The position numbers were made by a program, and so were the translations under genes. DNA of 64,000 bases from Bdellovibrionales bacterium (GTDB lineage Bacteria > Bdellovibrionota > UBA1018 > CAIMNF01), in contig JBEIJY010000007.1 in the NCBI GenBank assembly GCA_040380025.1, forward strand, positions 1 to 64,000, written 5' to 3'. A model generated the notes under the pieces. That model was not told the origin of the DNA, ran no database searches, and saw nothing but the letters and a program-made list of their open reading frames with translations. Within the stretch, counting starts at the first letter, position 1. Every line of letters starts with the position of its first letter. Shown here piece by piece: positions 1 to 22,047 of the stretch.

Positions 1-108
1 CTCGCTTTCGCGCGTCACGCGCTCGCGAGAGTCGGCAAAAATAGAATGATTCCAACCCCCTCTCCCCATCCCGCTCCTGAATCAAGCACAATCAAAGGGG
101 GCAGTTTG
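1..108 (-). mobile_element. MITE/REPIN-like palindromic element, copy A (partial, cut by window edge)
   Basis: Reverse complement reads CAAACTGCCCCCTTTGATTGTGCTTGAT...TTTTTGCCGACTCTCGCGAGCGCGTGACGCGCGAAAGCGAG, colinear with the copies at 3614 and 20908. It ends 5 bp from the stop codon at 114-116. Confidence 0.8.
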
Positions 109-113
109 TTGAG

Positions 114-860
114 TCAGACCAGATTCTCGGCAAGACAAAGCTCACGGAACGGAAGAACCCGCCCGCCTTTTTCGGCAGATCCATGATCGGCGGTACCGAG
201 ATGAACCTGATACACCCGCGGAATCGCATATCGCTCCTGATAATAGCGAAGACTCGGCTGAAGCGACCGCTCGCCGGTTTTGCATTCCACTGCGAATACG
301 GGTTTTTTATCCCGGGTCACCACAAAATCGATCTCTCTTTTTTCGGCATCCTGGATGTATCGAAGTTCCATGCGATGCCCCTCGGTGTCCTCTTTGAAAT
401 GGCAGTACTTCAGCAGGTGCGAGGCCACGAGATTCTCGAATCGCGCTCCCTCGGTTTCGGCCTGCGACCAGTCCCATAAAAACAACTTTTGTGTTTTTTT
501 CACCGCTTTTGCCCGGTTTTTCAGAGCATAGGGAGCGATCCGGTAACAAAAATACACGCTCTCCAGGAGCGAAATCCAGCGCTCCACCGTGTGCGGCGAT
601 ACGCCAAGATCCTCCTGCAAGCTCTTGATCGAAAGCGGAGCGGCCACCCTGCCAAACAGAAGCTCCACCAGCAATTCGACCAGACTGATGTCCTTCACCG
701 TCGAAAGATCAGCCAGATCCTGGGTGGTCACCCTCGCGACCAGCTCTCTCTGCCAGCGTCGCAGATGGGTCTCATCGGCCTTGGAATACGGTTCCGGAAA
801 TCCACCAAACTGCAAAAGACGATTCAAATCCGACGACAAGAGCTTTGGATGGATCTCGGA
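114..860 (-). pseudogene. 5'-truncated AAA+ ATPase / DUF4143 family gene (C-terminal ~250 aa only)
   Basis: Contains the family's C-terminal motifs (FGGFPEPY, KAVKKTQKLFLWDWS, GARFENLVASHL, KREIDFVV, AVECKTG). No Walker A (GPRQxGKT-type) or Walker B upstream; the upstream sequence is a palindrome and the 3' end of the neighbouring gene. Confidence 0.65.
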
Positions 861-890
861 ATAAAATGCAGTCAACTGCATTTTATTCCG
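857..890. repeat. Perfect AT-rich inverted repeat (16-bp arms, 2-nt spacer)
   Basis: CGGAATAAAATGCAGT-CA-ACTGCATTTTATTCCG, 7 bp downstream of the stop at 898. Confidence 0.85.
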
Positions 891-897
891 GCCCCAC

Positions 898-2139
898 TCA
901 CAACCCGGGACCGCGCTGGTCCTGCGAGCGTTTTCGGGCGTTTCCGAGGGTGATCGCAAGCCCGATCCGGGCGTAGGTCGAGAACCCGGGGCTGTTCCAG
1001 TACAGGTTGTAAAACATGGCCGGCAGGGCGATCGAGGGGTCCGGATCGGTCAGGCTGAGCTCGCGATACCGGATGCTAAAATTCCCATCCAGCCTCACTG
1101 CGGGTTTCGAGGGACGGATCTGGTAGCTCAGGTTCACGCCGGCCGAGTAGGTTCCGACCTTCTCGCCTCCCGCACGGAGCGGAATACTAAAGCCCGCATT
1201 CCCCGTGGTTTTGAGACGGGAGTCTTTCGAGTACACAATGAACACGATGCTCGCTCCACCGCTGGCAAAGGTCTCATGGAGCCGGTCGAAAATCGTCCGG
1301 AGCCGGTACTGGTTGTGGACCACGCCGATCGTCCCCTGCACGCGCACCTGGGTGGGCTGGCCCTGATCGCGGATCGGCACGAGATTCCACTCGATTCCGC
1401 CGGTCCCCGAGGTCGAAAAGTTGATATTCTTTTGCGCGGGGCTGTGTTCGGCCCCCGTGATCAAAAACGCATTCCAGTGTTTCTTGTCGTTCAGGCTGTA
1501 GGTCAGCGCAACCGTGGAGCCCACCAAAAGCCCGCTGATTCCCTCTCTTGTCCCCGAGATGATCTGGTTCGATGCCGAAAAATCGAGATTGTTCACATTC
1601 TCGAACTTCACGCGCGGAAAAGACCCGGCATTCAGATTGTACAGTCCGCCGCCATACGAGGAATTGGTCTTTCCGTTGTTCGAAAACCGCGCATTCCCCG
1701 TGATGTCAAAAAACCACGAGCCGCCGTCGTCCCCGCTCGTGAGCGGCTCATTCACCAAATGCGAGAGAAAATCCCGGATCGGGGCGATAAGGCGCTCCTT
1801 GCGAATCCGATCGTCGGCTGTTCGCGGAAGCTGGATCCGGATCATGAAGCTCCCCGACGGAGCCGAAGCCGTGATCGAGTACTCGACATTGTCTCCGAGT
1901 GCCTGATCGCTCAAGGTGACACTCACCGGAGCAGAGGGATCCGAGACGATCGTGATTCCGTCCAAGGAATCCTGAATGAACTGGATCATCCCCGCACAGC
2001 CCAGAACCGATTCATCGCGGAACGCGCACTGGACTCCCACCACGGGCTTGGCATCGGTGGCCTGCGCGCGGGCATCGATGGAGCCCGACAGAACGAGACC
2101 GATGCCAAACGACAAAAACAATTTCAAAACTCTCATCAT
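898..2139 (-). CDS. Secreted/outer-membrane hypothetical protein (possible beta-barrel C-terminal domain)
   Basis: 413-aa ORF with an N-terminal signal peptide (ARA-Q) and a C-terminal region of alternating hydrophobic/aromatic, Gly-rich strands. Confidence 0.7.
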   Translation of the reverse strand: MMRVLKLFLSFGIGLVLSGSIDARAQATDAKPVVGVQCAFRDESVLGCAGMIQFIQDSLDGITIVSDPSAPVSVTLSDQALGDNVEYSITASAPSGSFMIRIQLPRTADDRIRKERLIAPIRDFLSHLVNEPLTSGDDGGSWFFDITGNARFSNNGKTNSSYGGGLYNLNAGSFPRVKFENVNNLDFSASNQIISGTREGISGLLVGSTVALTYSLNDKKHWNAFLITGAEHSPAQKNINFSTSGTGGIEWNLVPIRDQGQPTQVRVQGTIGVVHNQYRLRTIFDRLHETFASGGASIVFIVYSKDSRLKTTGNAGFSIPLRAGGEKVGTYSAGVNLSYQIRPSKPAVRLDGNFSIRYRELSLTDPDPSIALPAMFYNLYWNSPGFSTYARIGLAITLGNARKRSQDQRGPGL

Positions 2140-2160
2140 CCAGCCTTGGGGGTCGAAGGG

Positions 2161-3567
2161 TTAAAGCACGCGGATCGGATTCGAGATCACCCAAGGATAG
2201 GTCTTCCGGGAGAGGCGCTCCGAGCGCGATTCGCGCTTAAGATGCAAGGGAATGATGAAAATCTCAACCCGATAATGGCCGGGCGCCGCAGGAACATGCG
2301 AGAAATCGGCTGTTTGGCCGGTCAAAATACGGGTTTCGACACCTTCCGGATTGACGTGGATCAAATCGGCGAAGATCTTGGGGCGATCTTCGGATCCGAT
2401 CGGAGCGAGCGGCGAATGAACCGAGGGGATTCGGATCTCGAGCACCGGCGAGGATTTCAACGATGCCCCTCCTCCCATCCCGGTCCGGACCGCGGTGCCG
2501 GGCTTCCTTCCCCGAGAAAGGGCAAAAAAATCAAACCCTGCCGGCGTGCCCAGCACCTCGAACACACCGAGCACCCTGCCCTCCCGGATCGCGGATTTCG
2601 CCGAATCCGGGGTCAGGTCGGGTGCGAGAATCCAGTTCGAGAGCTGCCCCAACATGCGACGATGGGAGTCCAATCGGAGCCCGTCCTCGGCCTTCATGCG
2701 AAACACATTCTGATGCGAGTCGATTCCGAGAACACCCGTCACGTGTCCGAAGCGAGAAAGGAGTTTTGCCCATTTCTCGAAGTACACCGGACTCAGCTTC
2801 AGGAACTCGAGCACGAAAAAATCCGGATTCGCCCAGCCGACCGGATCGAACAGATACTTCAGGAGACCGCCCATGAACCAAGACTCGCCCAGATGGTCTC
2901 TTCGAATCAACGGATGCCCCGAAGCGTGAAGATTGAACACCTCGATGAAATCGGGCTTCAGCTCGTACAAATACTCAAGACTCCGACTCTCGGTGTGAGG
3001 CACTCCGACGACCGCTCCCGTTTCTTTCTCGAACAGGAGTTTTGCATCGTTTTTTGCCGATCCCCCGCTCTCCATCACCTTGCGCCACGAGGAGTCATCC
3101 CGCCACTCCATTCCGAGCCCGAGAAGGGTCCCCTCTAGGCCGGGCATCAAATAGGGCCGAAATCCGTTCTCGCATCCGATCCGGATGGCGATCTCGCGGC
3201 CCTTCGCGGTCCGCACCGCAGAATCCTTCGGCCCCTTCAACAGAACCGCCGGATACGTCGCCTGTTCGAGCTTGTGCGGATGATCCGTCAGAAACGCGAA
3301 ATCGAGGTGGTTCGCACAAATCGCGTCTTTCAGGTCACGCTCGCACTGCGGGTTGATCGACCCGTCCGGATTGAGCCCCTTGTCGTCGCAAGCGTCGTAC
3401 GAAAACGGCCCATGAAGGTGCGTCTGCACCCGAAACCACCGCTGCCCCTTTGGGACCGGAAGCCCGAGGAGGTCAGGGAGCCCTGCCCTTGGCTCGCGAA
3501 GAGCAAAGGCGGTGGCTCCAAGCCATAGGCCCGGAGCGAGACACAAAAGAATCAACCATGACCTCAT
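2161..3567 (-). CDS. Secreted PHP-domain metal-dependent phosphoesterase-like protein
   Basis: Signal peptide; HLHGPFSYD, AFLTDH, PHTE, IEVFNLH and GIDSH motifs typical of the PHP fold. Confidence 0.75.
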   Translation of the reverse strand: MRSWLILLCLAPGLWLGATAFALREPRAGLPDLLGLPVPKGQRWFRVQTHLHGPFSYDACDDKGLNPDGSINPQCERDLKDAICANHLDFAFLTDHPHKLEQATYPAVLLKGPKDSAVRTAKGREIAIRIGCENGFRPYLMPGLEGTLLGLGMEWRDDSSWRKVMESGGSAKNDAKLLFEKETGAVVGVPHTESRSLEYLYELKPDFIEVFNLHASGHPLIRRDHLGESWFMGGLLKYLFDPVGWANPDFFVLEFLKLSPVYFEKWAKLLSRFGHVTGVLGIDSHQNVFRMKAEDGLRLDSHRRMLGQLSNWILAPDLTPDSAKSAIREGRVLGVFEVLGTPAGFDFFALSRGRKPGTAVRTGMGGGASLKSSPVLEIRIPSVHSPLAPIGSEDRPKIFADLIHVNPEGVETRILTGQTADFSHVPAAPGHYRVEIFIIPLHLKRESRSERLSRKTYPWVISNPIRVL

Positions 3568-3613
3568 CCAGACGAGGATATCTGACGCCGATCAATCGAG
3601 GCAAGTGCCGATC

Positions 3614-3815
3614 CAAACTGCCCCCTTTCATTGTGCTTGATGGGGCAGTGGGATGAAGAGAAGGGACTGGGATGATTCGGTTTTCCCCGACTCTCGCGAG
3701 GCAGGATTGCCGACAGCGAGGCCGCAGGACGCGGCTCGGAGGGGAAAATCGAATTATTCCAATCCCTTATCTTCATCCCTCGGCACAAAAAAGCACAGGC
3801 AAAGGGGGCAGTTTG
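3614..3815 (+). mobile_element. MITE/REPIN-like palindromic element, copy B (202 bp)
   Basis: Termini CAAACTGCCCCCTTT...AAAGGGGGCAGTTTG; inner 39-bp arms 3650-3688/3741-3779; conserved core 3689-3740; flanks GTGCCGATC (3605-3613) / GTGCGGATC (3816-3824), an 8/9 direct repeat. Confidence 0.85.
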
Positions 3816-3822
3816 GTGCGGA

Positions 3823-6171
3823 TCAGGCTTTCGCCGATTCGGTTTTTTTCTCGGGACTCGGGACCCTCGACTCGATCACAAAGTGCGGGCGGTCGTCCTT
3901 CAGAACCACGCGCACGGCTCCGCCGTTCTCAAGTTTTCCGAAGAGGATTTCTTCTGAAAGCGGCCGTTTGATCTCGTCTTGGATGACCCGCGCCAGCGGG
4001 CGCGCTCCCATCTTCCGGTCATAGCCCTTCTTGCCGAGCCACTCTCGAACGGGTTGCTCGAGCTCGATCTCGACGTTCTTCGCGAGGAGCAAATGCTCAA
4101 GCTCGACGATTTGTTTGTTCACCACCTGTTCCATCATCCGCTCGTCGAGAGGGTTGAAGAACACCGTGGCATCGAGGCGGTTCCGGAATTCCGGCGAGAA
4201 CGTGCGCTCGAGCTCTTTTTGCGAAGCTCCCGCTCCGCCCGGATCATTCTGGAATCCGACCGCCCTGCGCTCTGCATCCCGCGAACCCACGTTTGAGGTC
4301 ATGATGAGAATGATATTCCGGAAGTCGGCTTTTTTGCCGTTGTTGTCGGTCAAAAAACCGTGATCCATCACCTGGAGCATGATGTTCCAGACACTCGGAT
4401 GGGCTTTTTCGATCTCATCCAGAAGCACGACCGAATGCGGGTTTTTCATTGCGGCATCGGTCAAAAGCCCCGCCTGCTCGAACCCCACATATCCCGGAGG
4501 CGCGCCGATCAGGCGCGAAACGGTGTGCTGCTCCATGTACTCAGACATGTCGAAGCGAAGGAAGGAAACCCCGAGATGGCTTGCAAGCTGTTTCGAGAGC
4601 TCGGTTTTTCCGACCCCGGTCGGCCCGCAAAACAAGAACGATCCGATGGGGCGATCTCCGGTGCGCAAGCCCGAACGCGCAAGACGGATCGCCGAGACGA
4701 TTCTCTCGATCGCATGATCCTGCCCAAAGATCGTGAGTCGCAAGTTCCGATCGAGCGCCTGCAGGCGGTCTTTTTGGTTGTGGGTCACGGTTTTCGCCGG
4801 AATCCGCGCCATTTGCGCGATCATTTCCTCGACCTCGATTCCGGTGACCAGAACGGGCGCCGCCGGATCGACGGGCTGTTCTTGCACCCGTTTGATCCGG
4901 AGCTTTGCGCCGACCTCGTCGATCACGTCGATCGCCTTGTCGGGCAAAAACCGGTCGGTCAGATGCTTCACCGAGAGCTCGACCGCGGATTGAATCGACT
5001 CGGGGGTGTAAATGACCCCGTGGTGCATCTCGAACTGGGGCTTCAGTCCGTTCAGGATTTGAATCGTTTCGTCCTGGGTGGGCTCGGGCACGTCGATTTT
5101 TTGAAACCGCCGCGAGAGCGCGAGATCGCGCGCAAACGAGCTCCGGTACTCCTGGAATGTGGTCGAACCGAAACACCGGATCTCGCCGCGTGCGAGCATG
5201 GGCTTCAGCAGATTCGCCGCATCGACCGTGCCGCCGTTCACCGATCCGGCCCCGATGATGGTGTGAATCTCGTCAATGAAGAGGACGGGGAACTGCCCGC
5301 GCGAGTGCTTGGTCTCGAGCGCCTGAATGACCCGCTTCATGCGTTGCTCGAAATCCCCCCGGAACTTCGTTCCGGCGAGAAGGGCACCGAGATCGAGCGA
5401 GTAAATCACCGCCTCCCGAAGCAGATCGGGCACCTCGCGGTCGACGATCTTTTGCGCAAGACCTTCGGCGATCGCGGTCTTTCCGACGCCGGCCTCACCG
5501 ACCAGAAGGGGATTGTTCTTGCGTCTGCGGCAAAGGGTTTGAATGACCCGATCGAGCTCCTGTTTTCGTCCCACGAGGGGATCCAGTCGCCCGTTCTTCG
5601 CCAGTTCATTCAGATTCACCGTGTAGCTCGAGAGCACATCGTTCATCGACGCTCGGTGTTCGCTTTGCGGCTTCTGGCCCGACGCAGGTTGTTCTCCCGA
5701 CTCGGATTGAGACGCGCTCGAGAGATCCTCGGACGCTCCCTGCCCGTGACTGATGAAGCTCACCACTTCAAGACGATCAATGCCCTGCTGATTCAAAAGA
5801 TAGAGCGCCCAGGAGTCTTTGGCCTGAAACAGGGCGACAAACAAATCCACGGGTTGGATCTCGGTTTTTCCCGAGGACTGCACCTGAAAGATTGCGCGCT
5901 GGACGAGCCTCTGGACGCCCAAAGTCGCGATGGGGTTTTCTGCCTCGCCCTTTTCGGTTTTTGGCGCAAGCGGCACCTCCTTTTGCAGGTACGCCTTCAC
6001 GTCCTCACGGAGCTTCTCGACTGATCCTTTGCAGTGCTGGACCACCTGCACCACCTCGGGCTCATCGAGCAACACGGCCAGCACATGCTCAAGCGTCAAG
6101 AACTCGTGCTTGCCCTCGACTGCGGCCGACAGAGCCCGATTCAATACTGATTCCGCGCGTTTCCCGATCAT
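3823..6171 (-). CDS. clpA: ATP-dependent Clp protease ATP-binding subunit ClpA
   Basis: Clp N-domain, two AAA+ modules ([16 protein letters not shown]), RFDMSEY motif, no ClpB middle domain; directly downstream of clpS. Confidence 0.95.
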
Positions 6172-6521
6172 CGTTCATTCCTCTCCACCGGTTCCATCGT
6201 GAGTTTCAAGGGAAACCCCGACCTCCGGGCCTTTTCTGTGACCTTCAGGATCTTGCTTTCGGCGATCTCGAACGAGTACACGCCTGCCACGGCCTTTCCT
6301 TCTTCATGCACTTTCAGCATGATCCCGACCGCTTCTTCATGTGGTTTCGAAAAGTCCGAAGTCAAGACCTCCACAACGAATTCCATCGTCGTGTAATCAT
6401 CGTTATGCAAGAACACTGCGAACTTGCGGGGAGGCTCATTGACCGCGTCCAGCTCCTTCACGGCCGCTCCCGACTCGCCCTCGGTTCCTGGGTTTTGCGT
6501 CAAGTCCTTGTCTGATTCCAT
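6168..6521 (-). CDS. clpS: Clp protease adaptor ClpS
   Basis: VFLHNDDYTTMEFVVEVL, MLKVHEEGKAVAG and FPLKLTME motifs; overlaps the clpA start. Confidence 0.95.
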   Translation of the reverse strand: MESDKDLTQNPGTEGESGAAVKELDAVNEPPRKFAVFLHNDDYTTMEFVVEVLTSDFSKPHEEAVGIMLKVHEEGKAVAGVYSFEIAESKILKVTEKARRSGFPLKLTMEPVERNER

Positions 6522-6576
6522 GGTTTTCCTTGCACAAATTCTAGCATATTCCGCCCGATCCTGAGATCATTTCAGC

Positions 6577-7722
6577 ATGGGCATCCGGATTCCACGCGCC
6601 CCCGAAGAAAAAACCGAGGCCAACACGGCTTCGATCGCCTTTGACCACACCGATCCGAACCCGAACGGAGCGCGGCCCCCTGCGTCCATGCCCGATCTGG
6701 GAATCCTGAACGGCGCACTTTCGGACCCGGAAGTCACCGAGATCATGGTGAATGATCTGCGCAACATTGCCATCGAAAAACGCGGACAGATCGTGGTGAC
6801 CCCGATCCGCTTCAAGAGCCTCGAGGAGCTCGACCGTGTGGTCCAGATTCTGGCCCTTCCGTCCGGAAACCGGATCTCTCCCGAACATCCCCTCTGCGTG
6901 ACCACCCTGCCTGACGGATCGCGCGTGCATATTGCGGCACCCCCGATCACCGACTATGGTCCGTGCATCACGATCCGGCGTTTTCCGAAGCACCTGAACA
7001 TCTCCCAGCTCCTGCAATCGAAGATGCTCGATGTGCGGATGGCGCAATTCTTATCGGCATGCCTGCAGGGCCGCCAGAACGTTCTGATCAGCGGGGGAAC
7101 CGCCTCCGGAAAAACCACGCTCTTGAATGCGCTTCTTCCCTTGGTGCCGCCCCATGAACGGGTGATCACGATCGAGGAATCGCCCGAGATTCCGTATGTG
7201 CTTCCGAATCAGGTGAAGCTGACGGCGAGTGTTGCGACCGACGCTTCGGAGCAGGACATTTCGGTTCGGGAACTGATTCCGCATGCGCTCCGGATGCGAC
7301 CGGACCGGATCATTCTGGGCGATTGCCACGGCCCGGAAGCGAGGGAATTCATTCAGGCCATGAACGCCGGACACCGCGGCTCTATGACAACGCTTCATGC
7401 GGGCTCGCCCCGTGAGGCGCTCCTCCGGCTGGAGACGCTCTTGATGAGTGCGGGGCCCGAGATGCCGCTACCGGCAATCCGCAGGCAAATCGCGGGCGCG
7501 CTGGATTTGATTCTTCAGATCCGGAGGTTTCCTTCGGGAGTCCGGAAGCTCGTGTCGATCCAAGAAGTGTCCGGCTCCGATCAGGACACCTTGGTGTTGC
7601 ACGAGGTGTTCTCCTTCGAGCCGAAGAACCCGCTCGATTCCCAGAGCGATGAGGGAACCTTCCGGTTCAATGCCCCGTCGGGTATCGCAGATAAGCTGAA
7701 GGCGCAGGGGATCCGCGTCTAA
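6577..7722 (+). CDS. CpaF/TadA-family secretion ATPase
   Basis: DPEVTEIMVN, LPDGSRV, Walker A GGTASGKTT, TIEE, LRMRPDRIILG and His-box GHRGSMTTLHA. Confidence 0.9.
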   Translation: MGIRIPRAPEEKTEANTASIAFDHTDPNPNGARPPASMPDLGILNGALSDPEVTEIMVNDLRNIAIEKRGQIVVTPIRFKSLEELDRVVQILALPSGNRISPEHPLCVTTLPDGSRVHIAAPPITDYGPCITIRRFPKHLNISQLLQSKMLDVRMAQFLSACLQGRQNVLISGGTASGKTTLLNALLPLVPPHERVITIEESPEIPYVLPNQVKLTASVATDASEQDISVRELIPHALRMRPDRIILGDCHGPEAREFIQAMNAGHRGSMTTLHAGSPREALLRLETLLMSAGPEMPLPAIRRQIAGALDLILQIRRFPSGVRKLVSIQEVSGSDQDTLVLHEVFSFEPKNPLDSQSDEGTFRFNAPSGIADKLKAQGIRV

Positions 7723-7793
7723 ACTGCCCCCTTTGATTGTGCTTGGTGATGGAGCGGGCTCAATGGAGAAGCACAATCAAAGGGGGCAGTTTG
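7720..7793. repeat. TIR-only short derivative of the palindromic element (copy C1)
   Basis: Perfect 24-bp arms AAACTGCCCCCTTTGATTGTGCTT (7721-7744) / AAGCACAATCAAAGGGGGCAGTTT (7769-7792) with a 24-bp spacer; begins within the TAA stop of the CpaF-like gene. Confidence 0.85.
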
Positions 7794-7801
7794 CATGAAA
7801 T

Positions 7802-7975
7802 GCCTGAATCTCGGATTGCCCGAAACCATCCCGCCCCGTGAGGGCCCCACGAATGCTGGATGAGGCTCTCGCGAGCCAGGATGGCGAAAGCGAGGCCGCA
7901 GGACGCGGCTCGCCGAAATCCAGCATTCGTGGGGCCCTCACGGAGCGGGATGGTTTCGGGCGAACTGATTCAAGC
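7802..7975 (+). repeat. Core-bearing hairpin element lacking the family TIR (copy C2)
   Basis: 44-bp arms 7818-7861/7918-7961 (43/44 complementary) enclosing CTCTCGCGAGCCAGGATGGCGAAAGCGAGGCCGCAGGACGCGGCTCG. Confidence 0.85.
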
Positions 7976-8016
7976 GGATCGGGATTACTTTCGATATTTA
8001 CAACGAATTCAGTTTA

Positions 8017-8778: not shown

Positions 8779-8782
8779 CCGG

Positions 8783-13923: not shown

Positions 13924-15446
13924 TTCTCTCCTCCCCCCATCACCCGGCCCATCGACCAGGCATCGAATTCCGATCGCGCATAGGTGGCGCGGACGGATCC
14001 GTTGTAAAACACCAAAATGCGATCGCTCAGATCGATCAGCTCATCGAGCTCGGACGAGAAGAGCAACACGGCTTTTCCGCGATTCCGCTCCTGCATGATC
14101 GCCTCGTGGATTTTTTCGATCGCCCCGACATCCACCCCGCGCGTCGGGTGCGCGATCAGGAGCACATCCGGGTTCGAGTCGAGGGCGCGGGCGATCACGA
14201 GCTTTTGCTGGTTTCCGCCGCTCATGCGCCCCGTCCATACCGTCGTGAAAGGAGGCCGGATGTCGAACTCCTTGATCTTCTCTTCGACCCGGGTGCGGAC
14301 CACACCCCGGTTCAGGAAGCCGCGAGTCCCGTACCGGGGATCGCGATGCTGACCGAGCAGAAAATTCTCGGTCAGATCCTGATGCAACAAAAGCCCTTCC
14401 GAGAGGCGGTCCTCGGGGACGAGCCCCACCCCGGCATCGCGGAGGGAGAGCGGATCAAACCGGCTTGCGTCCTTGCCCTTCAGCAAAATCAGGCCTTCCG
14501 AACTTCCCTCGAATCGCGCGGGATGGGTCAGGTAACGAAGAAGCGTGGTCTGGCCGTTCCCCTGCACGCCTGCGATGCCCAGAATTTCTCCGGGACGGAT
14601 CTCGAAACTCACATCGCGGACGGGCTCCGAGGAACTCTCGACCGAAAGGCCCTTCACAGCGAGCACGGGGCGGGTGGCGCCACCCGCCGTGGCGAAAATC
14701 TTCCGCTCGCCCTGATAGGTGAACGAAACCGGACGCCCCACCATCATCTGCGCAAGCTCATCCTCGTTCGTCTCGGAGGTGATTTTGGTGCCCACTCCCT
14801 CGCCCCGCCTCATCACGGTGACCGAGTCGGTGAACTCGAGCACTTCCTTCAGCTTGTGCGAGATCAAAAGAATGGTCTTTCCCTCATCCTTCAGGCGCCG
14901 GAGGTTCTGAAACAGCTCCTTCACCTCTTGCGGGGTCAGAACGGCCGTGGGCTCGTCAAGAATCAGCACTTCGGATCGTTGGTAGAGGAGTTTCAGGATC
15001 TCGACCCTTTGCTGTTCGCCCACCGAGAGCTCCGACACCGGGCTGTCCCAGCGGTCGAACGAGAGCCCGTAGTCGGAGGAAATTTTACGGAGAGTGACGC
15101 GGGCCTTTTCGCGGTTGATGCCGAAGAATCCGGGCTCATGGCCCAAAATGATATTATCGAGAACGGTTTCGGGACCCGCCAGCATGAAATGCTGGTGGAC
15201 CATTCCGATCCCGTGCTTCATGGCATGAACGGGGCTTTTGATCCGAACGGGCTTTCCGCCGACCAGGATCTCGCCCTCATCGGCCGGATGGATCCCGAAC
15301 AGGACCTTCATCGCGGTCGACTTGCCGGCGCCGTTTTCGCCGATCAGACCATGAATCGACCCTGCGCGGACCTCAAAGCTCAGGTCGCGATTGGCATAAA
15401 AGGACCCAAAGCGCTTGGAGACTCCGCGAAACTCGAGCGCGTTCAT
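13920..15446 (-). CDS. Nucleoside/sugar ABC transporter ATP-binding protein (tandem NBDs)
   Basis: GENGAGKST, LSVGEQQRVEILK, ILDEPT, SGGNQQK, PTRGVDVGA. Confidence 0.95.
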   Translation of the reverse strand: MNALEFRGVSKRFGSFYANRDLSFEVRAGSIHGLIGENGAGKSTAMKVLFGIHPADEGEILVGGKPVRIKSPVHAMKHGIGMVHQHFMLAGPETVLDNIILGHEPGFFGINREKARVTLRKISSDYGLSFDRWDSPVSELSVGEQQRVEILKLLYQRSEVLILDEPTAVLTPQEVKELFQNLRRLKDEGKTILLISHKLKEVLEFTDSVTVMRRGEGVGTKITSETNEDELAQMMVGRPVSFTYQGERKIFATAGGATRPVLAVKGLSVESSSEPVRDVSFEIRPGEILGIAGVQGNGQTTLLRYLTHPARFEGSSEGLILLKGKDASRFDPLSLRDAGVGLVPEDRLSEGLLLHQDLTENFLLGQHRDPRYGTRGFLNRGVVRTRVEEKIKEFDIRPPFTTVWTGRMSGGNQQKLVIARALDSNPDVLLIAHPTRGVDVGAIEKIHEAIMQERNRGKAVLLFSSELDELIDLSDRILVFYNGSVRATYARSEFDAWSMGRVMGGGEK

Positions 15447-16465
15447 TTTTTCTTCTGGACGAGATAATAATCAGGAACCTTGATCTTGCCATTGATGATC
15501 TGCGAGCGAAGCGATTCGAGCTCTTTTTTATTCACTTCGCTGACCAGCTTCGCATTGTTTTCATCGACTGCGTAATCGACTCCTTTCGACTTCACTCCGA
15601 GTCGAACCAGGCCGGTGGTGAACTTGCCCTCTTTGTACATCTTCACGGACTCGAACACGGCATCATCCACGCGCTTCAGCATCGATGACAGAACAAATCC
15701 GGGCTTGATCCAGTTCTGGTTCGAATCAACCCCGATCGCGAGCTTGCCCTTTTCGGCCGCCGCATCGAAGACCCCGAGCCCGGAGTTGCCGGCCGCCACA
15801 AAAATGACATCCACTCCGTGGTTGTATTGGTCAAACGCGAGCTCTTTCGCCTTCGGGGGATTGTTCCAAGCCTCTCCGGTCACGCCAAGATAGTTTGCGA
15901 CCACTTGGGCTTTCGGATTGATTTTTTTGACACCCGCCTCGTAGCCCATCTGGAATCGACGGATCAGGGGAACATCCATGCCACCGATGAAGCCGACTTT
16001 TCCGGTTTTGGAGTGCATGGCGGCCAGGGCTCCCACCAGAAAGCTTCCCTCGTGCTCCTCGAACATCACCGAACGGACATTCGGGGCTTTCGCATCCTCA
16101 TCGATCAGCAAGAACTTCTGATCAGGAAACCGTGCCGCGTTCTTTTTGATCGCCTCAAGCTGATGGAATCCGACGGCCACCACGAGGTCGAATTTCTTCT
16201 CTGCAAAGGCTCTTTGAAGCGACTCATAGGCCGAGTTGTCGGGCGCTTCGACAGTCTTGGTGACCACACCCAGCTCTTTTTCGGCGCGCTTCAGCCCCTG
16301 GTAGGCCGAGGCATTGAAGGATTTGTCGTCTTTCCCGGAGCGTTCCAGAACGAGCCCCACCTTGATCTCGGCACTTGAATTGGCCGCATGACACACCAGA
16401 ACCATCAGGCAAAGAGAGACCTTCCCGAACCAACGAAGACACATTGTGCTCATGCCCCAATTCAT
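15443..16465 (-). CDS. BMP-family ABC transporter substrate-binding protein
   Basis: DDKSFN, EHEGSFLVGALAA, GFIGGM, AIGVDSNQ, SMLKRVD; signal peptide. Confidence 0.93.
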   Translation of the reverse strand: MNWGMSTMCLRWFGKVSLCLMVLVCHAANSSAEIKVGLVLERSGKDDKSFNASAYQGLKRAEKELGVVTKTVEAPDNSAYESLQRAFAEKKFDLVVAVGFHQLEAIKKNAARFPDQKFLLIDEDAKAPNVRSVMFEEHEGSFLVGALAAMHSKTGKVGFIGGMDVPLIRRFQMGYEAGVKKINPKAQVVANYLGVTGEAWNNPPKAKELAFDQYNHGVDVIFVAAGNSGLGVFDAAAEKGKLAIGVDSNQNWIKPGFVLSSMLKRVDDAVFESVKMYKEGKFTTGLVRLGVKSKGVDYAVDENNAKLVSEVNKKELESLRSQIINGKIKVPDYYLVQKKK

Positions 16466-16491
16466 ACCCGATTCGAACCCCGTTCGTCGAA

Positions 16492-16520
16492 TTGATTTTG
16501 ACCCCCACAGGGGCTACCCT
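16492..16520 (+). promoter_or_regulatory. Sigma70-like promoter, probably leaderless
   Basis: TTGATT-N17-TACCCT-N6-GTG (start of the Tad-domain gene); no Shine-Dalgarno. Confidence 0.55.
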
Positions 16521-16526
16521 GAAAGA

Positions 16527-18746
16527 GTGGGGCAATCGGGGAAAACCGTCAGGGATCAAAAGCGAAATCGACTCGGGGACAATCAGGGACAGTCGATCTT
16601 CATGGTCGCCATCCTGATCCTGACCCTGATTCTTTTTTTCACGTTCACGGTCAATACGGGGCTTCTGATCCACGCCAAGATCAGCGTCCAGGCCGCGGCC
16701 GACGCCGCCGCCTATTCCGGAGCCGCAACTCAAGGAAGATGGTTGAACGCGATCTCGTTTTTGAACTACGACATGCGCCGGCAGTACAAAAAATTCCTGT
16801 TCCGGAACGCCTTTGTGGGAAACATGGGGAGTCCGGATTTCCTGAGCGGATCATTTGCGCAAGGGGATGTCGATGCGGACGGACGCTATCTTTTTCCGAA
16901 GTTCGACCGGTCTGGAAGCCCTGTCGATTATAAAAAAACCATCAACCTCCGCGTGCCGGCAGTCTGCATGCCCATGTTTCCGAACCCAAACGGTCCTTCC
17001 GGCAAGAACGAAGACAATTGCATGGCAATCAACCAAAGAAACACAACGCAGGATGTGCTTCAGCAGGTCGGAATTCTCGCAGGAACAGGCGGCTCCATCC
17101 TCGATACGTATCTGGATGCCTCCCGAAGCATCATGGCGCTTCAGAACGAGCTTTGCAAAGCCCAGGGGCTCATCAACCAGTTCGTGCTCCTGACTTGGGC
17201 ATTCCGGGGCGACTCCGACAACCAGGAAATCAACCGGATTCTCGACCGGCTGTACACCAGCATCCCCGGCGCAAGCCAACAGCTGCAGGACCGGAGCCGC
17301 CTGAATAGAATCATCGCAGAGGTCACCAAGGGACTGGGTTTGTACCCCAAGAATATTTTCACCCTGATGCGGATCCAAACCCTGGTCGAGTTTCTGAACA
17401 CCACTCCCCAAACCGTGAATCCCGACCAGCTCGAGGCATGGGAGAGGGCCACAGACACCGCCGACACGCACGAGCATTCCATTCTGGCCTTTCGGTCCGC
17501 CCTCTCGAATCTGAATCACTCGGTGTTCGACGTCTCGAAAACCGAGATGCAGGAACTGCATCAGGCCAAAACCCTGGACGCCCAGACCGTCGAGGCCGAC
17601 ATCGACACCTTCATTCAAGTCATGATTCCGAGTGCGACCTTGAACCCTTCCGCCGCGACCTTTTGCAATGCCTCGATTCATCAGATCCCGCTCCGGGGAA
17701 TTCCGGTTGGCGTGAAACTGAACCGGCGCCCGGGAACCAATGTGGTGTACGGAGTGAAGCTCAGGGCCTTCGTGAAGCCCCGCGGGCTATTCTTCGCCCC
17801 CTGGAACGAGCCGCTCGAGCTCTCGGCCTATGCGGCGGCGAAGCCATTCGGAAGCCGGACCGGTCCCTCTGACCTGAATCCCGAGGCGGAGCTCTACGAA
17901 AAAGAAGTCGATTTGAGCTCGGTGGTTGTGAACGGAGAACACATTTGCAATCCGGGCGCTGTCGCCCTAGGTCACAAATGCAACGTACCCAACATGAAGG
18001 TCGACCCTTCCGACTCAAAACTCACATTTTTCCATCAGGATTTCTTGAAGAAGATGGCGGAGCTCTCAACCAGCCGGCCTGCGGGCACCAATAAGGTCAT
18101 CCTCGATGATAGCAAGCTTCAAACCGCTCAACATCATGCCATGGCACCGAACCCGATCGAGGTGGGCCGATACAACATTCTCCCCCCGCCCCCCGAGAAC
18201 TTGGACTCTCTGAAATACGAATTCATCCCCTACTTTGACAAAGAAACCGCCCAAAGCCAGCAAACCGGACCCCAAGGCACCTACCAGGCCCCTCCGGCCT
18301 ATCGGTTCTACGCCCCGATCTTCAAAAAGGGCTCCGAGGATGTCAACGGCATCATCCAGAAGGTGCTCGACAAAACCCTGGATGGCGCATTTCCGAACCA
18401 GTTCGGAATCACCCTGAATGACGTCAAAGAGCAGACCAAGATCGCGATGAACAACTACTATCTGAACAAACTTAAATCGACCGGCGGAGACGACAACGAG
18501 ACTGAGACCTTCGCCGCGGTTCAACTTCCCTTATACAAACTGACCCCTCCGGGATCAAAAAAGTTCTGGCTCCAGACCGACAAAGAAGTCCTGAGCTCCT
18601 GGGGACCGGACCATGTGAAGATCGGGAAGACCCAATGGGGCTATCGGCCCCGTTTCGGGTATTCCGTCCGGTTCGTCGGCTTGCAAGACCTGCTGGCCGA
18701 AGGCTTGCAAGATGTGAGCGAAGAATTCGATCAAGTCGGACATTGA
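16527..18746 (+). CDS. Large TadE/TadG-like pseudopilin-domain protein
   Basis: Prepilin-like NQGQSIFMVAILIL...QAAADAAAYSGA N-terminus followed by a ~650-aa Cys-containing extracytoplasmic domain. Confidence 0.82.
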   Translation: MGQSGKTVRDQKRNRLGDNQGQSIFMVAILILTLILFFTFTVNTGLLIHAKISVQAAADAAAYSGAATQGRWLNAISFLNYDMRRQYKKFLFRNAFVGNMGSPDFLSGSFAQGDVDADGRYLFPKFDRSGSPVDYKKTINLRVPAVCMPMFPNPNGPSGKNEDNCMAINQRNTTQDVLQQVGILAGTGGSILDTYLDASRSIMALQNELCKAQGLINQFVLLTWAFRGDSDNQEINRILDRLYTSIPGASQQLQDRSRLNRIIAEVTKGLGLYPKNIFTLMRIQTLVEFLNTTPQTVNPDQLEAWERATDTADTHEHSILAFRSALSNLNHSVFDVSKTEMQELHQAKTLDAQTVEADIDTFIQVMIPSATLNPSAATFCNASIHQIPLRGIPVGVKLNRRPGTNVVYGVKLRAFVKPRGLFFAPWNEPLELSAYAAAKPFGSRTGPSDLNPEAELYEKEVDLSSVVVNGEHICNPGAVALGHKCNVPNMKVDPSDSKLTFFHQDFLKKMAELSTSRPAGTNKVILDDSKLQTAQHHAMAPNPIEVGRYNILPPPPENLDSLKYEFIPYFDKETAQSQQTGPQGTYQAPPAYRFYAPIFKKGSEDVNGIIQKVLDKTLDGAFPNQFGITLNDVKEQTKIAMNNYYLNKLKSTGGDDNETETFAAVQLPLYKLTPPGSKKFWLQTDKEVLSSWGPDHVKIGKTQWGYRPRFGYSVRFVGLQDLLAEGLQDVSEEFDQVGH

Positions 18747-18763
18747 TTTCCCGAGGGAACCCC

Positions 18764-18793
18764 TTGCCAAAACCATTCCCCTTTCGCTAGCTT
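18764..18793 (+). promoter_or_regulatory. Sigma70-like promoter of the histone-like gene
   Basis: TTGCCA-N18-TAGCTT, followed by AAGGAG SD before ATG 18829. Confidence 0.45.
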
Positions 18794-18828
18794 TCAAGGG
18801 TACGCCGTTCCAAAAAAGGAGAATCACC

Positions 18829-19533
18829 ATGGCAAAAAAGAAAATCCAGAAAAAGACCGCTGCGGTCAAAAAATCCGCGGCAAAAAAACCAGCGGTTAAG
18901 AAACCAGCGGTTAAAAAAGCAGTCAAGAAAGCAGTCACCACAAAAGCGCCCGCAAAAAAGACCACAGCGAAGAAGACCGTAGCAAAAAAACCTGTCGCTA
19001 AAAAAGCGGCTGCTAAAAAACCTGCCGCAAAGAAGACCGTCGCGAAGAAACCGGTGGCGAAAAAAACCGTAGCCAAAAAAACCGTGACCAGTAAAACAGT
19101 CGCGAAAAAAGCGGCCACCAAAAAACCTGCCCCGAAACCAGTCCCCGTGAAGACCGGGACCCCTTCGGTCACCACCTCTCCAACCGGCGCCGCCACCCTT
19201 GCAACGGCAATGGCCGCAACCGCCGCCGTGGGAGCCCTCGGAGCGAACCTCGTCGGCGAGGGGCATGATGCCTACGATGACGATCAGGAACTCGGCATGG
19301 AGGAGACCTTCATCGAAGACGAAGAATCCCTTCAGGACCCGTCCGACGAGGATGAAGAAGACGAGTACTACACCCGCGGGTTTGACGAGGAAGAGGAGTC
19401 CGAGGACTTCGAATCCGAAGACCTGAGCGAAGAGGATGAAGAAGACTTCGAGCTCGACGAAGAAGAGCTCGAAGAAGACGAAGACATGGAATTCGACTCG
19501 GACGAGGACTTCTCGGACGAGGACGAAGACTGA
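18829..19533 (+). CDS. Histone H1/Hc2-like protein with acidic C-terminal tail
   Basis: Strong SD; (T/P/A)(V/A)AKK pentapeptide repeats (~41 Lys in the first ~108 aa), Ala-rich linker, ~56 Asp/Glu in the last ~91 aa. Confidence 0.85.
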   Translation: MAKKKIQKKTAAVKKSAAKKPAVKKPAVKKAVKKAVTTKAPAKKTTAKKTVAKKPVAKKAAAKKPAAKKTVAKKPVAKKTVAKKTVTSKTVAKKAATKKPAPKPVPVKTGTPSVTTSPTGAATLATAMAATAAVGALGANLVGEGHDAYDDDQELGMEETFIEDEESLQDPSDEDEEDEYYTRGFDEEEESEDFESEDLSEEDEEDFELDEEELEEDEDMEFDSDEDFSDEDED

Positions 19534-19582
19534 TCTCCGGACTTCCGGGATCCGAAACCAAGAACAAGGGAGCTCATGCCGT

Positions 19583-20899
19583 ATGGATATCCGAGACGTG
19601 ATCCATGGTGTAATCCCGATCGAAGCGCATGAGCTCCCGGTTCTTGAATCGTTCTTGTTCCAACGACTCCGGCAGATCCGGCAAACCGGCTTCGCCGAGC
19701 ACTCCTACCCGGGCGCCACCCACAACCGCTACATTCACAGCATCGGCGCCCTCCACACCATCACCGAGACCTTTGAAGCGATCTTCTCGGGACTGAAGAA
19801 AAAGAAATACCCGCTTTGGAAGCGCTTTCGCGCTCTTGCGCGCCTGTCTGCCGCCCTTCATGACATCGGCCACGGGCCGCTCTCCCACACGACCGAGTTC
19901 GCGATGCCCGAGGTCTCCAAACTCGGCGCTCGCTTCGGATCGAAACGAAAAGCCACCCACGAGGACTACACCCTCAAAATCATCCTCGACTCTCCCCTTA
20001 CCCCCGTCCTCGAAAAAGCGGGCGAACCGTTTGGTTTTGGTCCCCTTCACATCGCGGCGCTGATCGATTCCGGAATCAAACTGAACGAGGATTTTTTCAT
20101 CGAACGCATCGAGGGCGAGAAGCTGAACTTCCGCCCGGTTTTGCACCAGCTGATTTCGAGCGAGATGGATGCGGATCGCATGGACTACCTGAGACGCGAC
20201 AGCTTTTACTGCGGCGTCAACTATGGGGTCTTCGACTACTCCTGGATTTTGCGGAACTCCTGCGCACACACCAAGGACGGAAAAGTATATCTTGCGATCA
20301 AACACCGCGCGCTCTACGCCTTCGAGGACTTCCTGCTCGCCCGCTTCAACATGTTCCTGCAGGTGTATCTACACCACAAAACGGTCGTGTACGACGAGAT
20401 GCTCGCAAACTACCTGAACGACCCGTTCTGCGACTACAAGCTCCCGGCCGACATCGAGACCTATGCCCGTTGTACGGATGCGCACTTATATGCCCATCTT
20501 GCACAGTCCACGAACCCCTGGGCCAAACGAATTGTCGAAAAACAACCCTTCAAGATGTTCATCGAGATCCACAGCGGGATTCCCTCGACCGCGAATGCAC
20601 GGGAACAACAAGAACGGCTGTTCCGGAAAGCGCGGGCCGAACTGGAGTCGCGCGGCATTCCCTACATCGAGAACACCTCGACCGGGATCCTGTCCAAATA
20701 CTTTGGCCGGTCGGATCATCCGATTTTTGTCAAATACGACAACCTGTATTCGGATCCGAGCTTCATTCCGCTCGAAAAATGCACTTCGCTCTTCACCCAG
20801 TACCCGAATTCGCGCTCGATCTCGCGGCTCTTCGTTGCGCCCGAGGATCATCAAAAGCTCGTGGGCCGGAAGCGCGATCACGCGATCCTGTTCGAGTGA
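19583..20899 (+). CDS. HD-domain phosphohydrolase (dNTP triphosphohydrolase/SAMHD1-YwfO-like)
   Basis: RDVIHG, FQRLRQIRQ, YPGATHNRYIHSIG, LHDIGHGPLSH, DADRMDYLRRDS, QVYLH. Confidence 0.9.
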   Translation: MDIRDVIHGVIPIEAHELPVLESFLFQRLRQIRQTGFAEHSYPGATHNRYIHSIGALHTITETFEAIFSGLKKKKYPLWKRFRALARLSAALHDIGHGPLSHTTEFAMPEVSKLGARFGSKRKATHEDYTLKIILDSPLTPVLEKAGEPFGFGPLHIAALIDSGIKLNEDFFIERIEGEKLNFRPVLHQLISSEMDADRMDYLRRDSFYCGVNYGVFDYSWILRNSCAHTKDGKVYLAIKHRALYAFEDFLLARFNMFLQVYLHHKTVVYDEMLANYLNDPFCDYKLPADIETYARCTDAHLYAHLAQSTNPWAKRIVEKQPFKMFIEIHSGIPSTANAREQQERLFRKARAELESRGIPYIENTSTGILSKYFGRSDHPIFVKYDNLYSDPSFIPLEKCTSLFTQYPNSRSISRLFVAPEDHQKLVGRKRDHAILFE

Positions 20900-20907
20900 A
20901 TCTCAAC

Positions 20908-21110
20908 CGAACTGCCCCCTTTGAGTGTTCCTGATCAGTACGATGTTTCGGGAAAGGGGGTGGGAAACAAAAAGGTTTTGCCGACTCTCGCGAGCCAGGA
21001 TGGCGAAAGCGAGGCCGGAGGACCCGGCTCGGAGGCAAAAACATTTTTGTTTCCCACCCCCTTTCCCGAACCACGGTACCGGATCAAGCACACCCAAAAG
21101 GTGCAGTTTG
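20908..21110 (+). mobile_element. MITE/REPIN-like palindromic element, copy D (203 bp) with 9-bp target-site duplication
   Basis: Termini CGAACTGCCCCCTTTG...CAAAAGGTGCAGTTTG; perfect 27-bp inner arms 20947-20973/21044-21070; conserved core; AATCTCAAC on both sides (20899-20907, 21111-21119); lies between convergent stop codons. Confidence 0.88.
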
Positions 21111-21114
21111 AATC

Positions 21115-22047
21115 TCAACTCGGAAGATTCGCCCGATACATCAGTCCTTGGGCATTCACGCGAAGATCCAGATCCAGAAGCCCGAGCTCCCGCTCATCGA
21201 GGCGGAATCCCTGACTCTGAAAATACTCGCTCACCCACGCCCGCAGGAGCCCGCAGGTCCGGGCCTCCGACAGCCCCTCGTTCCTGATCCTCGTCAAAAG
21301 ATCCATCGAGAACCGGAGCTGATCGCGAAGCATCGCCAGCATCCTCGGATGCTCGCTCTTCGGAATCATGCCGAAATGCGTGGGCGCGATCCATGCCGGA
21401 GCAAGCCGCTCGATCCAGTCCAGGGTGGCGAGAGCCGCCTCGCCGTCAAAATCAGTGGGAGAAGTCGAAACGAGCGCCACCACCCCGTGCTTTGCGTTCA
21501 GCACCGGGTACGAAACGCCGCAGGAATCGCCTGTGAACAAGGTGCGTGTCAGGGGCTCGAACACGACCAGATGATGGTTCGCATGCCCGCGGGTATGGCG
21601 GATCTCGAGCTCCACCCCCTGAAAAAACAAAGAATCCCCGTCCTTCAGCACCTGCACCCGCTCCTCGGGGCAAGGAAGAATCGTCCCGTAGAGTCGTTGC
21701 ATGAACTCTTCGCCATACACCGCTGTCGCACTCGCCACGAGCTTCGAGGGGTCGATCGCATGGCGCGCGGCCTTCGGGTGCGCAAAGAGCCTTGCGTTCG
21801 GAAAGGTCTTCAAGAACAAGCCGGCTCCGCCCGCATGGTCAAGATGAATATGGGTCACGATGAGCCCATCGACTTGCTCGAGCGAGAGTCCCTCGGCATG
21901 CACGGCCTTCACGAGCTCCGGCAGGGCGTGATTCGTGTTGCATTCGACAAACATGGCCCGCTCGCCGCGAACCAAAAGGTAAGACGCCGCAAATCCCGGC
22001 TCGACATAGTTGCAATCCACCGTGATGATCTTCATCATGGATTTCAT
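21115..22047 (-). CDS. MBL-fold metallo-hydrolase
   Basis: THIHLDHAGG, TRGHANHH, LFTGDS, PTHFG; start at 22047, 22038 or 22035. Confidence 0.9.
   Translation of the reverse strand: MKSMMKIITVDCNYVEPGFAASYLLVRGERAMFVECNTNHALPELVKAVHAEGLSLEQVDGLIVTHIHLDHAGGAGLFLKTFPNARLFAHPKAARHAIDPSKLVASATAVYGEEFMQRLYGTILPCPEERVQVLKDGDSLFFQGVELEIRHTRGHANHHLVVFEPLTRTLFTGDSCGVSYPVLNAKHGVVALVSTSPTDFDGEAALATLDWIERLAPAWIAPTHFGMIPKSEHPRMLAMLRDQLRFSMDLLTRIRNEGLSEARTCGLLRAWVSEYFQSQGFRLDERELGLLDLDLRVNAQGLMYRANLPS

Follow-up and report, generated by a model that had tools for sequence, protein, structure and literature searches.

Short palindromic repeats of a Bdellovibrionales genome are likely MITEs of an unnamed IS1-like insertion sequence and carry a TwoAYGGAY-like tip

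The 64-kb stretch of DNA analysed here (the window) contains dispersed hairpins of about 200 bp that encode no protein, which raises the question of what moves them and what they carry. The first-pass annotation had described three homologous copies, whose positions and ends were confirmed. Copy A (1-108, minus strand) is a partial element, cut off by the contig start, with one TIR (~84-108), an arm and, at 1-42, the tip's first half. Copy B (3614-3815, plus strand) is a full 202-bp element lying 7 bp 3' of the clpA stop codon, and its Y-shaped tip (3680-3749, plus strand) forms a three-way junction with tandem GA and two GGA loops. Copy D (20908-21110, plus strand), full-length at 203 bp and with its tip at 20974-21042 (plus strand), lies between convergent HD-domain and metallo-hydrolase-fold genes. 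The direct repeats claimed around B and D are also real: an exact 9-mer at D (20899-20907, overlapping the stop codon of the HD gene, and 21111-21119) and an 8/9 match at B (3605-3613 and 3816-3824), all on the plus strand. The whole-element hairpin folds have z scores of -12.8 (B) and -11.5 (D) compared with 200 shuffles.

Two features of the window had gone unnoticed. A fourth tip (7854-7925) is carried by a long TIR-less hairpin (7802-7975, plus strand) whose arms occur nowhere else in the genome. Beside it, a TIR-only remnant (7720-7793, without assigned strand) forms a 74-bp mini-hairpin with neither tip nor repeat. The secretion-ATPase gene upstream takes its stop codon from the first three bases of this remnant, and its product is 1-2 residues shorter at the C-terminus than in five related genomes. 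No called gene lies inside the window copies and, in agreement with the earlier reading, none of the window's genes was recognised as a transposase (Pfam on 20 ORFs and NCBIfam on 39 genes, which between them cover the 50 called genes, several of these without a match). Neither the partner transposase described below nor Y1_Tnp has a match on the window's contig.

The proposal of a non-autonomous, high-copy family holds for the whole genome, a Bdellovibrionales-type MAG from a predatory-type bacterium. We counted about 90 tip copies (91 tip matches), and a pattern search returned 81 matches compared with none for the reversed control. Thirty-five TIR pairs surround a non-coding interior, 31 of them spanning 199-206 bp, and the elements end in nnAACTG, the first two bases being loose with consensus CA. 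The arms are hypervariable among copies and near-perfectly complementary within any one copy, and one copy has the tip flipped relative to its shell. Shell and tip also occur apart: 13 of the 56 scorable copies carry a tip without a recognised TIR, and tip-less TIR elements of ~200 bp exist as well (on contigs C12 and C20). Among tip copies from related genomes, 16/70 passed a strict TIR test and many have no recognised TIR. Copy number within the genus ranges from 0 to 81. In an exact-pattern scan of GTDB (29 of 64 parts, 88 loci) real tips were found only in Bdellovibrionales, the remainder being chance GC-rich matches, and our literature searches, which covered papers outside subscription, found no description of the element or of the IS clade introduced next.

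A copy with the same TIRs enclosing a transposase, which the first-pass annotation had envisaged in either DDE or HUH form, was found outside the window, and it is of the DDE type. This candidate partner IS is ~1 kb long, has the same nnAACTG ends and encodes a 303-aa protein with zinc ribbon, HTH and RNase-H regions. Two full transposase genes are present, on contigs C5 and C12, each flanked by hairpin modules on both sides; further IS ends lie at contig ends (three left, three right), and a collapsed 1060-bp IS contig has twice the genome's depth. Nearly all complete IS loci examined end in nnAACTG[CG]. MITE ends and canonical IS ends share their first 12-15 bases in this genome and about 22 bases in related ones. 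In three related genomes the MITE ends are closer to the IS ends of the clade in their own genome (0.77-0.85) than to those of this genome (0.65-0.72); here, the MITE ends score 0.81 against their own IS, a value that includes the MITE-like C12 ends, and 0.71-0.72 against those of the relatives.

The transposase has 4028 homologues, and the clade occurs in 48 of 127 genomes of the class. Twenty-seven viral loci that carry the TIR 15-mer contain neither transposase nor tip; PLSDB plasmids gave no match to the transposase, and PDB holds no sequence relative of it. Its predicted structure (pLDDT 82) adopts a DDE/integrase fold, with the ISCth4 transposase as best match (Foldseek E 8e-6; Z 14.1, rmsd 7.9 over 254 residues). 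The Cys pairs of the zinc ribbon are conserved in the homologues, and D134, D213, N259 and H260 are invariant in 78 of them, as are E246 and D253. N259 falls at what we take to be the Glu position of the IS1 motif; that placement predicts Asn in place of Glu as the third catalytic residue, with E246 or D253 as alternative candidates. An N-terminal zinc ribbon, HTH, RNase-H/DDE fold and a single ORF in a ~1-kb element are all in common with the IS1 and IS1595 families, and the target duplication of IS1 is likewise 9 bp. The partner IS differs from the IS1 family in its predicted Asn and in its score against the IS1 model NF033558 (37.5-45.6 bits, far under the cut-off of 100). A Pfam search of the transposase gave no significant match, DDE_Tnp_IS1 included, and the nearest Pfam-bearing Atlas clusters are DDE_Tnp_IS1. 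Membership of IS1595 was not supported: NF033547 reached 13 bits against a cut-off of 75, in one of three proteins, and IS1595 elements as treated in PMC8101967 usually have 8-bp duplications and ends that begin with GG, whereas the partner IS has 9 bp and ends that mostly begin with CA.

The 9-bp target duplication claimed from two copies is present genome-wide above chance. Repeats matching at 7/9 or more positions flank nine of the 35 TIR pairs (four of them exactly), compared with 0.5% of 1190 cross-pairs (p ~1e-13), and over these 35 pairs the duplication length peaks at 9 only. The other 26 pairs are without a 9-bp repeat, a majority that had been overlooked. Among IS copies of the genus, 21 of the 22 scored are without a repeat of 7/9 or better, and near-identical young IS ends gave none in any pairing; outside the genus, exact 9-bp repeats are found at 2 of 17 well-defined copies. 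MITE and IS ends share a symmetric target preference: in the flanking 9-mer, position 2 favours a purine and position 8 a pyrimidine. Ends that have no repeat and do not lie at stop codons show it (63/77 with a purine at -8, p 1e-7; 62/77 with a pyrimidine at -2, p 1e-9), and so do IS ends (27/34 and 31/34, respectively). Since the repeat-less ends keep this symmetric signature, we infer that repeats were lost by secondary attack of the transposase; with repeats missing at so many MITE pairs and IS copies of the genus, some insertions may also have proceeded without duplication. Exchange of flanks between copies, considered as a cause of the missing repeats, was rejected (1 of 1640 cross-pairs at 8/9, the chance level). 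General mirroring of flanks beyond the TIRs was likewise rejected, with one clear case (C3:81964) among 41 and the rest near the null.

Related genomes contain empty sites. The junction of HD gene and metallo-hydrolase-fold gene, singled out beforehand as a place for an empty allele, is empty in 3/5 relatives, and there the two stop codons overlap directly. Overall, three of five repeat-bearing sites have an empty junction in one or more of these five relatives (D in 3/5, C25 in 2/5, C18 in 4/5); at the other two, B and C39, the repeat is present and the conserved neighbour absent. Repeat-less sites were empty in 0/4 (0/20 loci), a contrast to 3/5 that is not significant (one-sided Fisher ~0.12, by hand), and at two of these four a gene ends on a stop codon contributed by the TIR and is 1-4 residues shorter than in the related genomes. 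Logan contigs of three runs, one of which may be the source, contained no empty alleles; such contigs drop rare variants.

The tip is a separate TwoAYGGAY-like module, which occurs also without these TIRs; the first-pass annotation had not set it apart. Two hairpins stand on a common long basal stem and form with it a three-way junction that covaries and contains tandem GA and GGA loops. In the tip alignment 95.8% of cells are paired and 12 of 23 pairs show two-sided changes (128 such cells compared with 29 after shuffling); on the tip strand of the inner stem G-U exceeds A-C (70:26 here, 106:47 in related genomes), while the outer, TIR part shows no excess (33:32), and in genome G065 the excess is confined to the first 15 pairs (10:0) and not seen over 35 (18:13), all these G-U and covariation counts overstating independence since the copies share ancestry. 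Loops are here mostly 5-nt AGGAY or variants without GGA; GGA is kept in 52/80 first and 56/84 second loops (missing in 28 of each), compared with 62/64 and 68/70 in related genomes. Copies of the same tip in G065 have true AYGGAY hexaloops in at least 7 of the 22 viewed. TwoAYGGAY (RF01731), as outlined in PMC2864571, PMC4333381 and bioRxiv 10.64898/2026.09.22.753630, similarly has a long, poorly conserved basal stem, two GGA-loop hairpins, tandem GA pairs and dispersed copies of variable number. The tip differs by its predominant pentaloops and in not matching RF01731: no match above the gathering threshold was found on window copies, own-genome copies or 20 loci from relatives, and Rfam scans of the window and those 20 loci gave only sub-threshold hairpin matches. 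One sub-threshold RF01731 match was found in the order, and it has its first hairpin in common with the tip. Here, moreover, the tip lies inside IS-type TIRs with a candidate mover; the main text of the 2026 preprint reports none such, leaves the cause of variable TwoAYGGAY-type copy number open and offers a mobile-element-like route as a suggestion only.

Whole-element hairpins would also suit a REPIN-like family, in which an HUH/RAYT transposase would move the hairpins in single-stranded form; this was one component of the earlier reading. The genome has a single Y1_Tnp gene, and a TIR-only remnant does lie 17 bp past its end; strand-specific wobble would fit single-stranded DNA. REPINs and BIMEs with RAYT, as presented in PMC3184786, are likewise extragenic hairpins of high copy number that often lie near the 3' ends of genes, but the ends, the 9-bp duplications and the bias in target choice seen here agree with a DDE-fold IS. 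The Y1 gene itself lacks the codon for the first HUH His in 4/4 genus copies examined and adjoins the same neighbour gene in 3/3 related genomes; no tip was found at 13 Y1 loci from five genomes, and TIRs lie by the stop codon of ~2.7% of genes anyway (57/2117). With no intact HUH/Y1 transposase flanked by repeats in the genus, this mover is largely refuted and very improbable, and the REPIN component is not supported. A domesticated array of regulatory RNAs, in which host selection would maintain the copies as CsrA sponges or stabilisers of 3' ends and mobility would be only historical, strikes us as improbable, although less so. The CsrA/RsmE motif is described as an A(N)GGAX loop closed by a C-G pair, and the C-G-closed AGGAY pentaloops of the covarying tip resemble RsmZ SL3/SL4 (PMC4005645); csrA is present in the genome, GGA is kept in nearly all loops of the relatives, and the G-U asymmetry falls on the tip strand. 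Yet copy number drops to zero within the genus, insertion sites are not conserved, GGA is lost from a third of the loops here, the tip strand shows no bias relative to host transcription (in gaps between co-directional genes, 16 tips are sense and 11 antisense), and pentaloops lacking N are lower-affinity sites in that same account.

The alternative that the tip is the primary mobile unit, with some copying mechanism mirroring adjacent DNA into the long stem, is a possibility we take seriously but doubt. Tips would then have moved into MITE shells belonging to several IS families, the IS1-like transposase having only amplified the composites. Tips without TIRs, TIR elements without tips and arms that vary among copies and match within them all accord with it, as do the tips of G065 in a different, ~290-bp wrapper (at least 30 copies) and those within mirrored tRNA 3' ends in genomes G011 and G016. 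However, no candidate enzyme was found beside tip clusters or near Y1 genes, the ORFs between tips being housekeeping or hypothetical; decay or truncation of MITEs may account for the copies without TIRs; and the TIR-bound class would still need the transposase. A primary tip is largely compatible with the MITE explanation, from which it differs in the origin of the tip.

We therefore consider it probable, judging from sequence comparison, that the ~200-bp hairpins are MITEs which the unnamed IS1-like IS mobilises in trans through its transposase, with the tip as a likely passenger. Bacterial MITEs with the TIRs of a resident IS (Nezha/ISNpu3, Pseudomonas R0/R2), as presented in PMC3184786, have in common with them the IS-shared TIRs, target duplication, absence of a transposase, stable long stem-loop, ~200-bp size and empty and filled sites. 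The present family differs in its partner, in its loose first two terminal bases, in that most copies have a target signature without the duplication, and in its interior, which is palindromic within each copy and has the conserved, covarying three-way junction at its top. Very probably the transposase would bind two TIRs ~200 bp apart and insert the element with a 9-bp stagger. Somewhat more likely than not, it would later attack neighbouring DNA again from an end already in place, so that a flank is deleted or rearranged and a new target half-site is left without a repeat, often at a gene's last codons. By a narrow preference, we think that arm exchange and selection on the tip-bearing strand, folded as a single strand, would each contribute to keeping the inner stem complementary. 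More tentatively, the GGA loops might bind CsrA upon transcription of the tip strand.

The mobile-element logic in itself is ordinary MITE biology. The IS clade, widespread as it is, has been missed by curated models, and a residual target signature that reveals lost target duplications provides a simple test for other repeat families. Taken jointly, it is an unlikely though conceivable picture that an undescribed IS1-like clade of predatory bacteria, possibly D-D-N, spreads CsrA-binding modules of the TwoAYGGAY class, and that some 90 mini-elements re-cut their surroundings, shuffle gene order, trim genes to their last codons and seed regulator-binding hairpins at gene 3' ends. The transposase and its 200-bp substrate make up a directly testable pair for how TwoAYGGAY-like motifs may spread.

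The first-pass annotation placed three copies of a ~200-bp hairpin element with terminal inverted repeats (TIRs) in the window, and all three are present at the positions it gave: copy A (1-108, minus strand), partial and cut by the contig start, copy B (3614-3815), with an 8/9 flanking repeat, and copy D (20908-21110), with an exact 9-bp one, both repeats as claimed. B and D each fold, as proposed, into one long stem with two small hairpins on top (folding z -12.8 and -11.5). A TIR-only remnant (7720-7793) and a TIR-less hairpin (7802-7975) carrying a fourth tip, the Y-shaped three-way junction inside the element, were absent from that annotation. No transposase was found in the window, either among its genes or by direct search. 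Copy A adjoins a DUF4143 gene (114-959), and at another locus, L172, tips flank an ATPase gene that looks similar. A Lys/Ala-rich gene with 15-bp repeats and an acidic tail (18829-19533) matches histone H1-like HC2 (Pfam PF07382).

The predicted high copy number is borne out by 91 tip matches in the 2.35-Mb genome, 87 of them with E<1e-5. Since a tip or TIR lies within 260 bp at 43 of the 106 contig ends, the family is a main cause of breaks in this assembly. Paired TIRs span 199-206 bp in 31/35 pairs; the conserved end reads AACTG from position 3, and the two outermost bases vary (CA in 65/138 ends); in each of the four copies whose repeats are perfect, they differ between left and right end. 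The tip pattern is present in 4/17 genomes of the genus (counts of 81, 34, 19 and 16, against none for the reversed control), and a covariance model of the tip (R2) detects it in 16/127 genomes of the class. A GTDB scan over 29 of 64 parts gave real matches solely in records titled Bdellovibrionales. The element behaves as a classical MITE, showing every MITE feature testable here. Our literature search, with ISfinder and preprint supplements outside its reach, found no published description of it or of its partner insertion sequence (IS). On contig C40 (12599-12855 and 2340-2570) and at loci L137 and L178 the tip occurs in longer variants with additional internal hairpins, some of them GGA-looped.

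The likely mover is this partner, an IS1-like sequence with two full transposase genes (contigs C5 and C12). Three left and three right IS ends were found via orphan TIRs directed into contig ends, and a collapsed 1060-bp IS contig has a depth of 67 versus 33 for single-copy DNA. In related genomes the IS measures ~1000-1040 bp and also ends in nnAACTG. The transposase has 4028 homologues and is present in 48/127 class genomes. It has no significant Pfam match and matches the IS1 model weakly (37-46 bits, cut-off 100); by curated cut-offs the IS falls outside both IS1 and IS1595. In the Atlas it neighbours transposase clusters from Bdellovibrionota, and the nearest clusters with any Pfam assignment carry DDE_Tnp_IS1. 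Its predicted structure (pLDDT 82) resembles the ISCth4 transposase and retroviral integrase cores. D134, D213, N259 and H260 are unchanged across 78 sequences, as are E246 and D253; by the IS1 motif, N259 presumably occupies the expected Glu position, and we take E246 and D253 to be alternatives. End comparisons show MITE ends following the local IS subfamily: those of relatives score 0.77-0.85 against IS ends of their own genome versus 0.65-0.72 against those of the source genome, whose own MITE ends score 0.81 against its IS ends, a partly circular value; the canonical IS ends there have just 12-15 bases in common with the MITE ends. Outside the genus, 2/17 well-defined IS copies are flanked by 9-bp repeats that are exact and keep the same register; within it, repeats of at least 7/9 flank 1/22 scored copies. 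At C5:99901-101245 and C12:43756-45072 (L038, L047), and also at L022, whole ~200-bp hairpin modules apparently replace the transposase genes' own IS ends; in the C5 and C12 cases the downstream module begins at an identical position and gives the stop codon, and the proteins are just 63% identical.

Flank identity peaks at length 9 alone (0.43 vs 0.17-0.26). The proposed 9-bp target duplication holds for part of the family: 9/35 pairs match in at least 7/9 positions, against 0.5% of 1190 cross-pairs, while the other pairs look random, so that the distribution is bimodal and not one of gradual decay. At 118 repeat-less ends, C stands 8 bases out in four and G 2 bases out in seven, a scarcity that constitutes a symmetric 9-bp target signature. 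The signature is seen away from stop codons (purine 63/77, pyrimidine 62/77), in MITEs of relatives (22/26 and 20/26) and at IS ends (27/34 and 31/34). Both flanks of repeat-less copies therefore look transposase-made despite their mismatch. Flank swapping between copies was rejected, as it does not account for the missing repeats, which may instead stem from adjacent deletion or rearrangement after insertion. PMC11708052 documents this as a cause of absent duplications, and also reports that some insertions never produce one.

The suggested empty-site check, made in five relatives, showed flanking genes adjacent and the site empty at D in 3/5, at C25 in 2/5 and at C18 in 4/5; at the repeat-bearing B and C39 no empty adjacent-gene junction was seen in these five. 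For four repeat-less sites, none of the 20 loci of relatives has the partner gene, and at two of the four a TIR supplies the stop codon of a gene slightly shorter than in relatives. These synteny data agree with deletion or rearrangement after insertion, the contrast being small and not significant. An autonomous IS lies at the clpA 3' end, the site of copy B, in G011 (L314), and in G010 (L384) the C18 junction holds a 429-bp gap that bears an element-type end; these independent family members near junctions used in the source genome possibly mark recurrent target sites.

The REPIN/RAYT reading also raised in the first-pass annotation fails: the sole Y1 gene has degenerated, keeps its synteny and, in relatives, has no elements flanking it, and a RAYT was rejected as mover. 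This single-copy Y1/RAYT-like gene (C13:34583-35185; L011:1336-1938), beside what we take to be a tgt-like gene, lacks the first HUH His in 4/4 genus copies and is possibly domesticated. A domesticated sponge array is unlikely, because copy number swings between genomes and insertion sites are unconserved. A self-mobile tip that mirrors its flanks may account for the copies that lack TIRs and for how the composite arose. Tips are found without these TIRs, in another wrapper and within mirrored tRNA ends, so tip and shell are separable modules. In G065 (L235, L251, L261-L280) the tip sits within a different ~290-bp wrapper, which has long perfect outer arms and conserved sub-terminal motifs of its own. 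Next to tRNA-Arg, at C26:3486-3611 (L301), lies a separate tip whose long stem bears two AYGGAY loops; it scores 30 bits with RF01731, below cut-off, and does not match R2.

The tip is TwoAYGGAY-like and not a scoring RF01731 member: these elements gave no RF01731 match, although its architecture agrees with the published TwoAYGGAY description, some G065 copies bear true AYGGAY loops, and a sub-threshold RF01731 match in the order shares its first hairpin. Across 61 tips (five from the source genome, 56 from three relatives) the junction is 95.8% paired, against 33-46% in slid controls, with two-sided changes at 12/23 pairs, eight of them in the basal stem, and GA steps of the stems invariant or almost so. 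Most loops are AGGAY pentaloops closed by a C-G pair, as in RsmZ SL3/SL4, a type that PMC4005645 gives as lower-affinity CsrA sites. GGA is retained in 62/64 and 68/70 loops of relatives and in 52/80 and 56/84 of the source genome, where a csrA gene is present. On the tip strand, inner-stem mismatches favour G-U over A-C (70:26 in the source genome, 106:47 in relatives), versus no preference in the outer TIR part (33:32). This excess speaks for selection acting on a single folded strand, rather than for upkeep of the stem by copying alone; a flipped tip at C42 shows that arm exchange occurs too. Tip strand shows no bias relative to host transcription (16:11).
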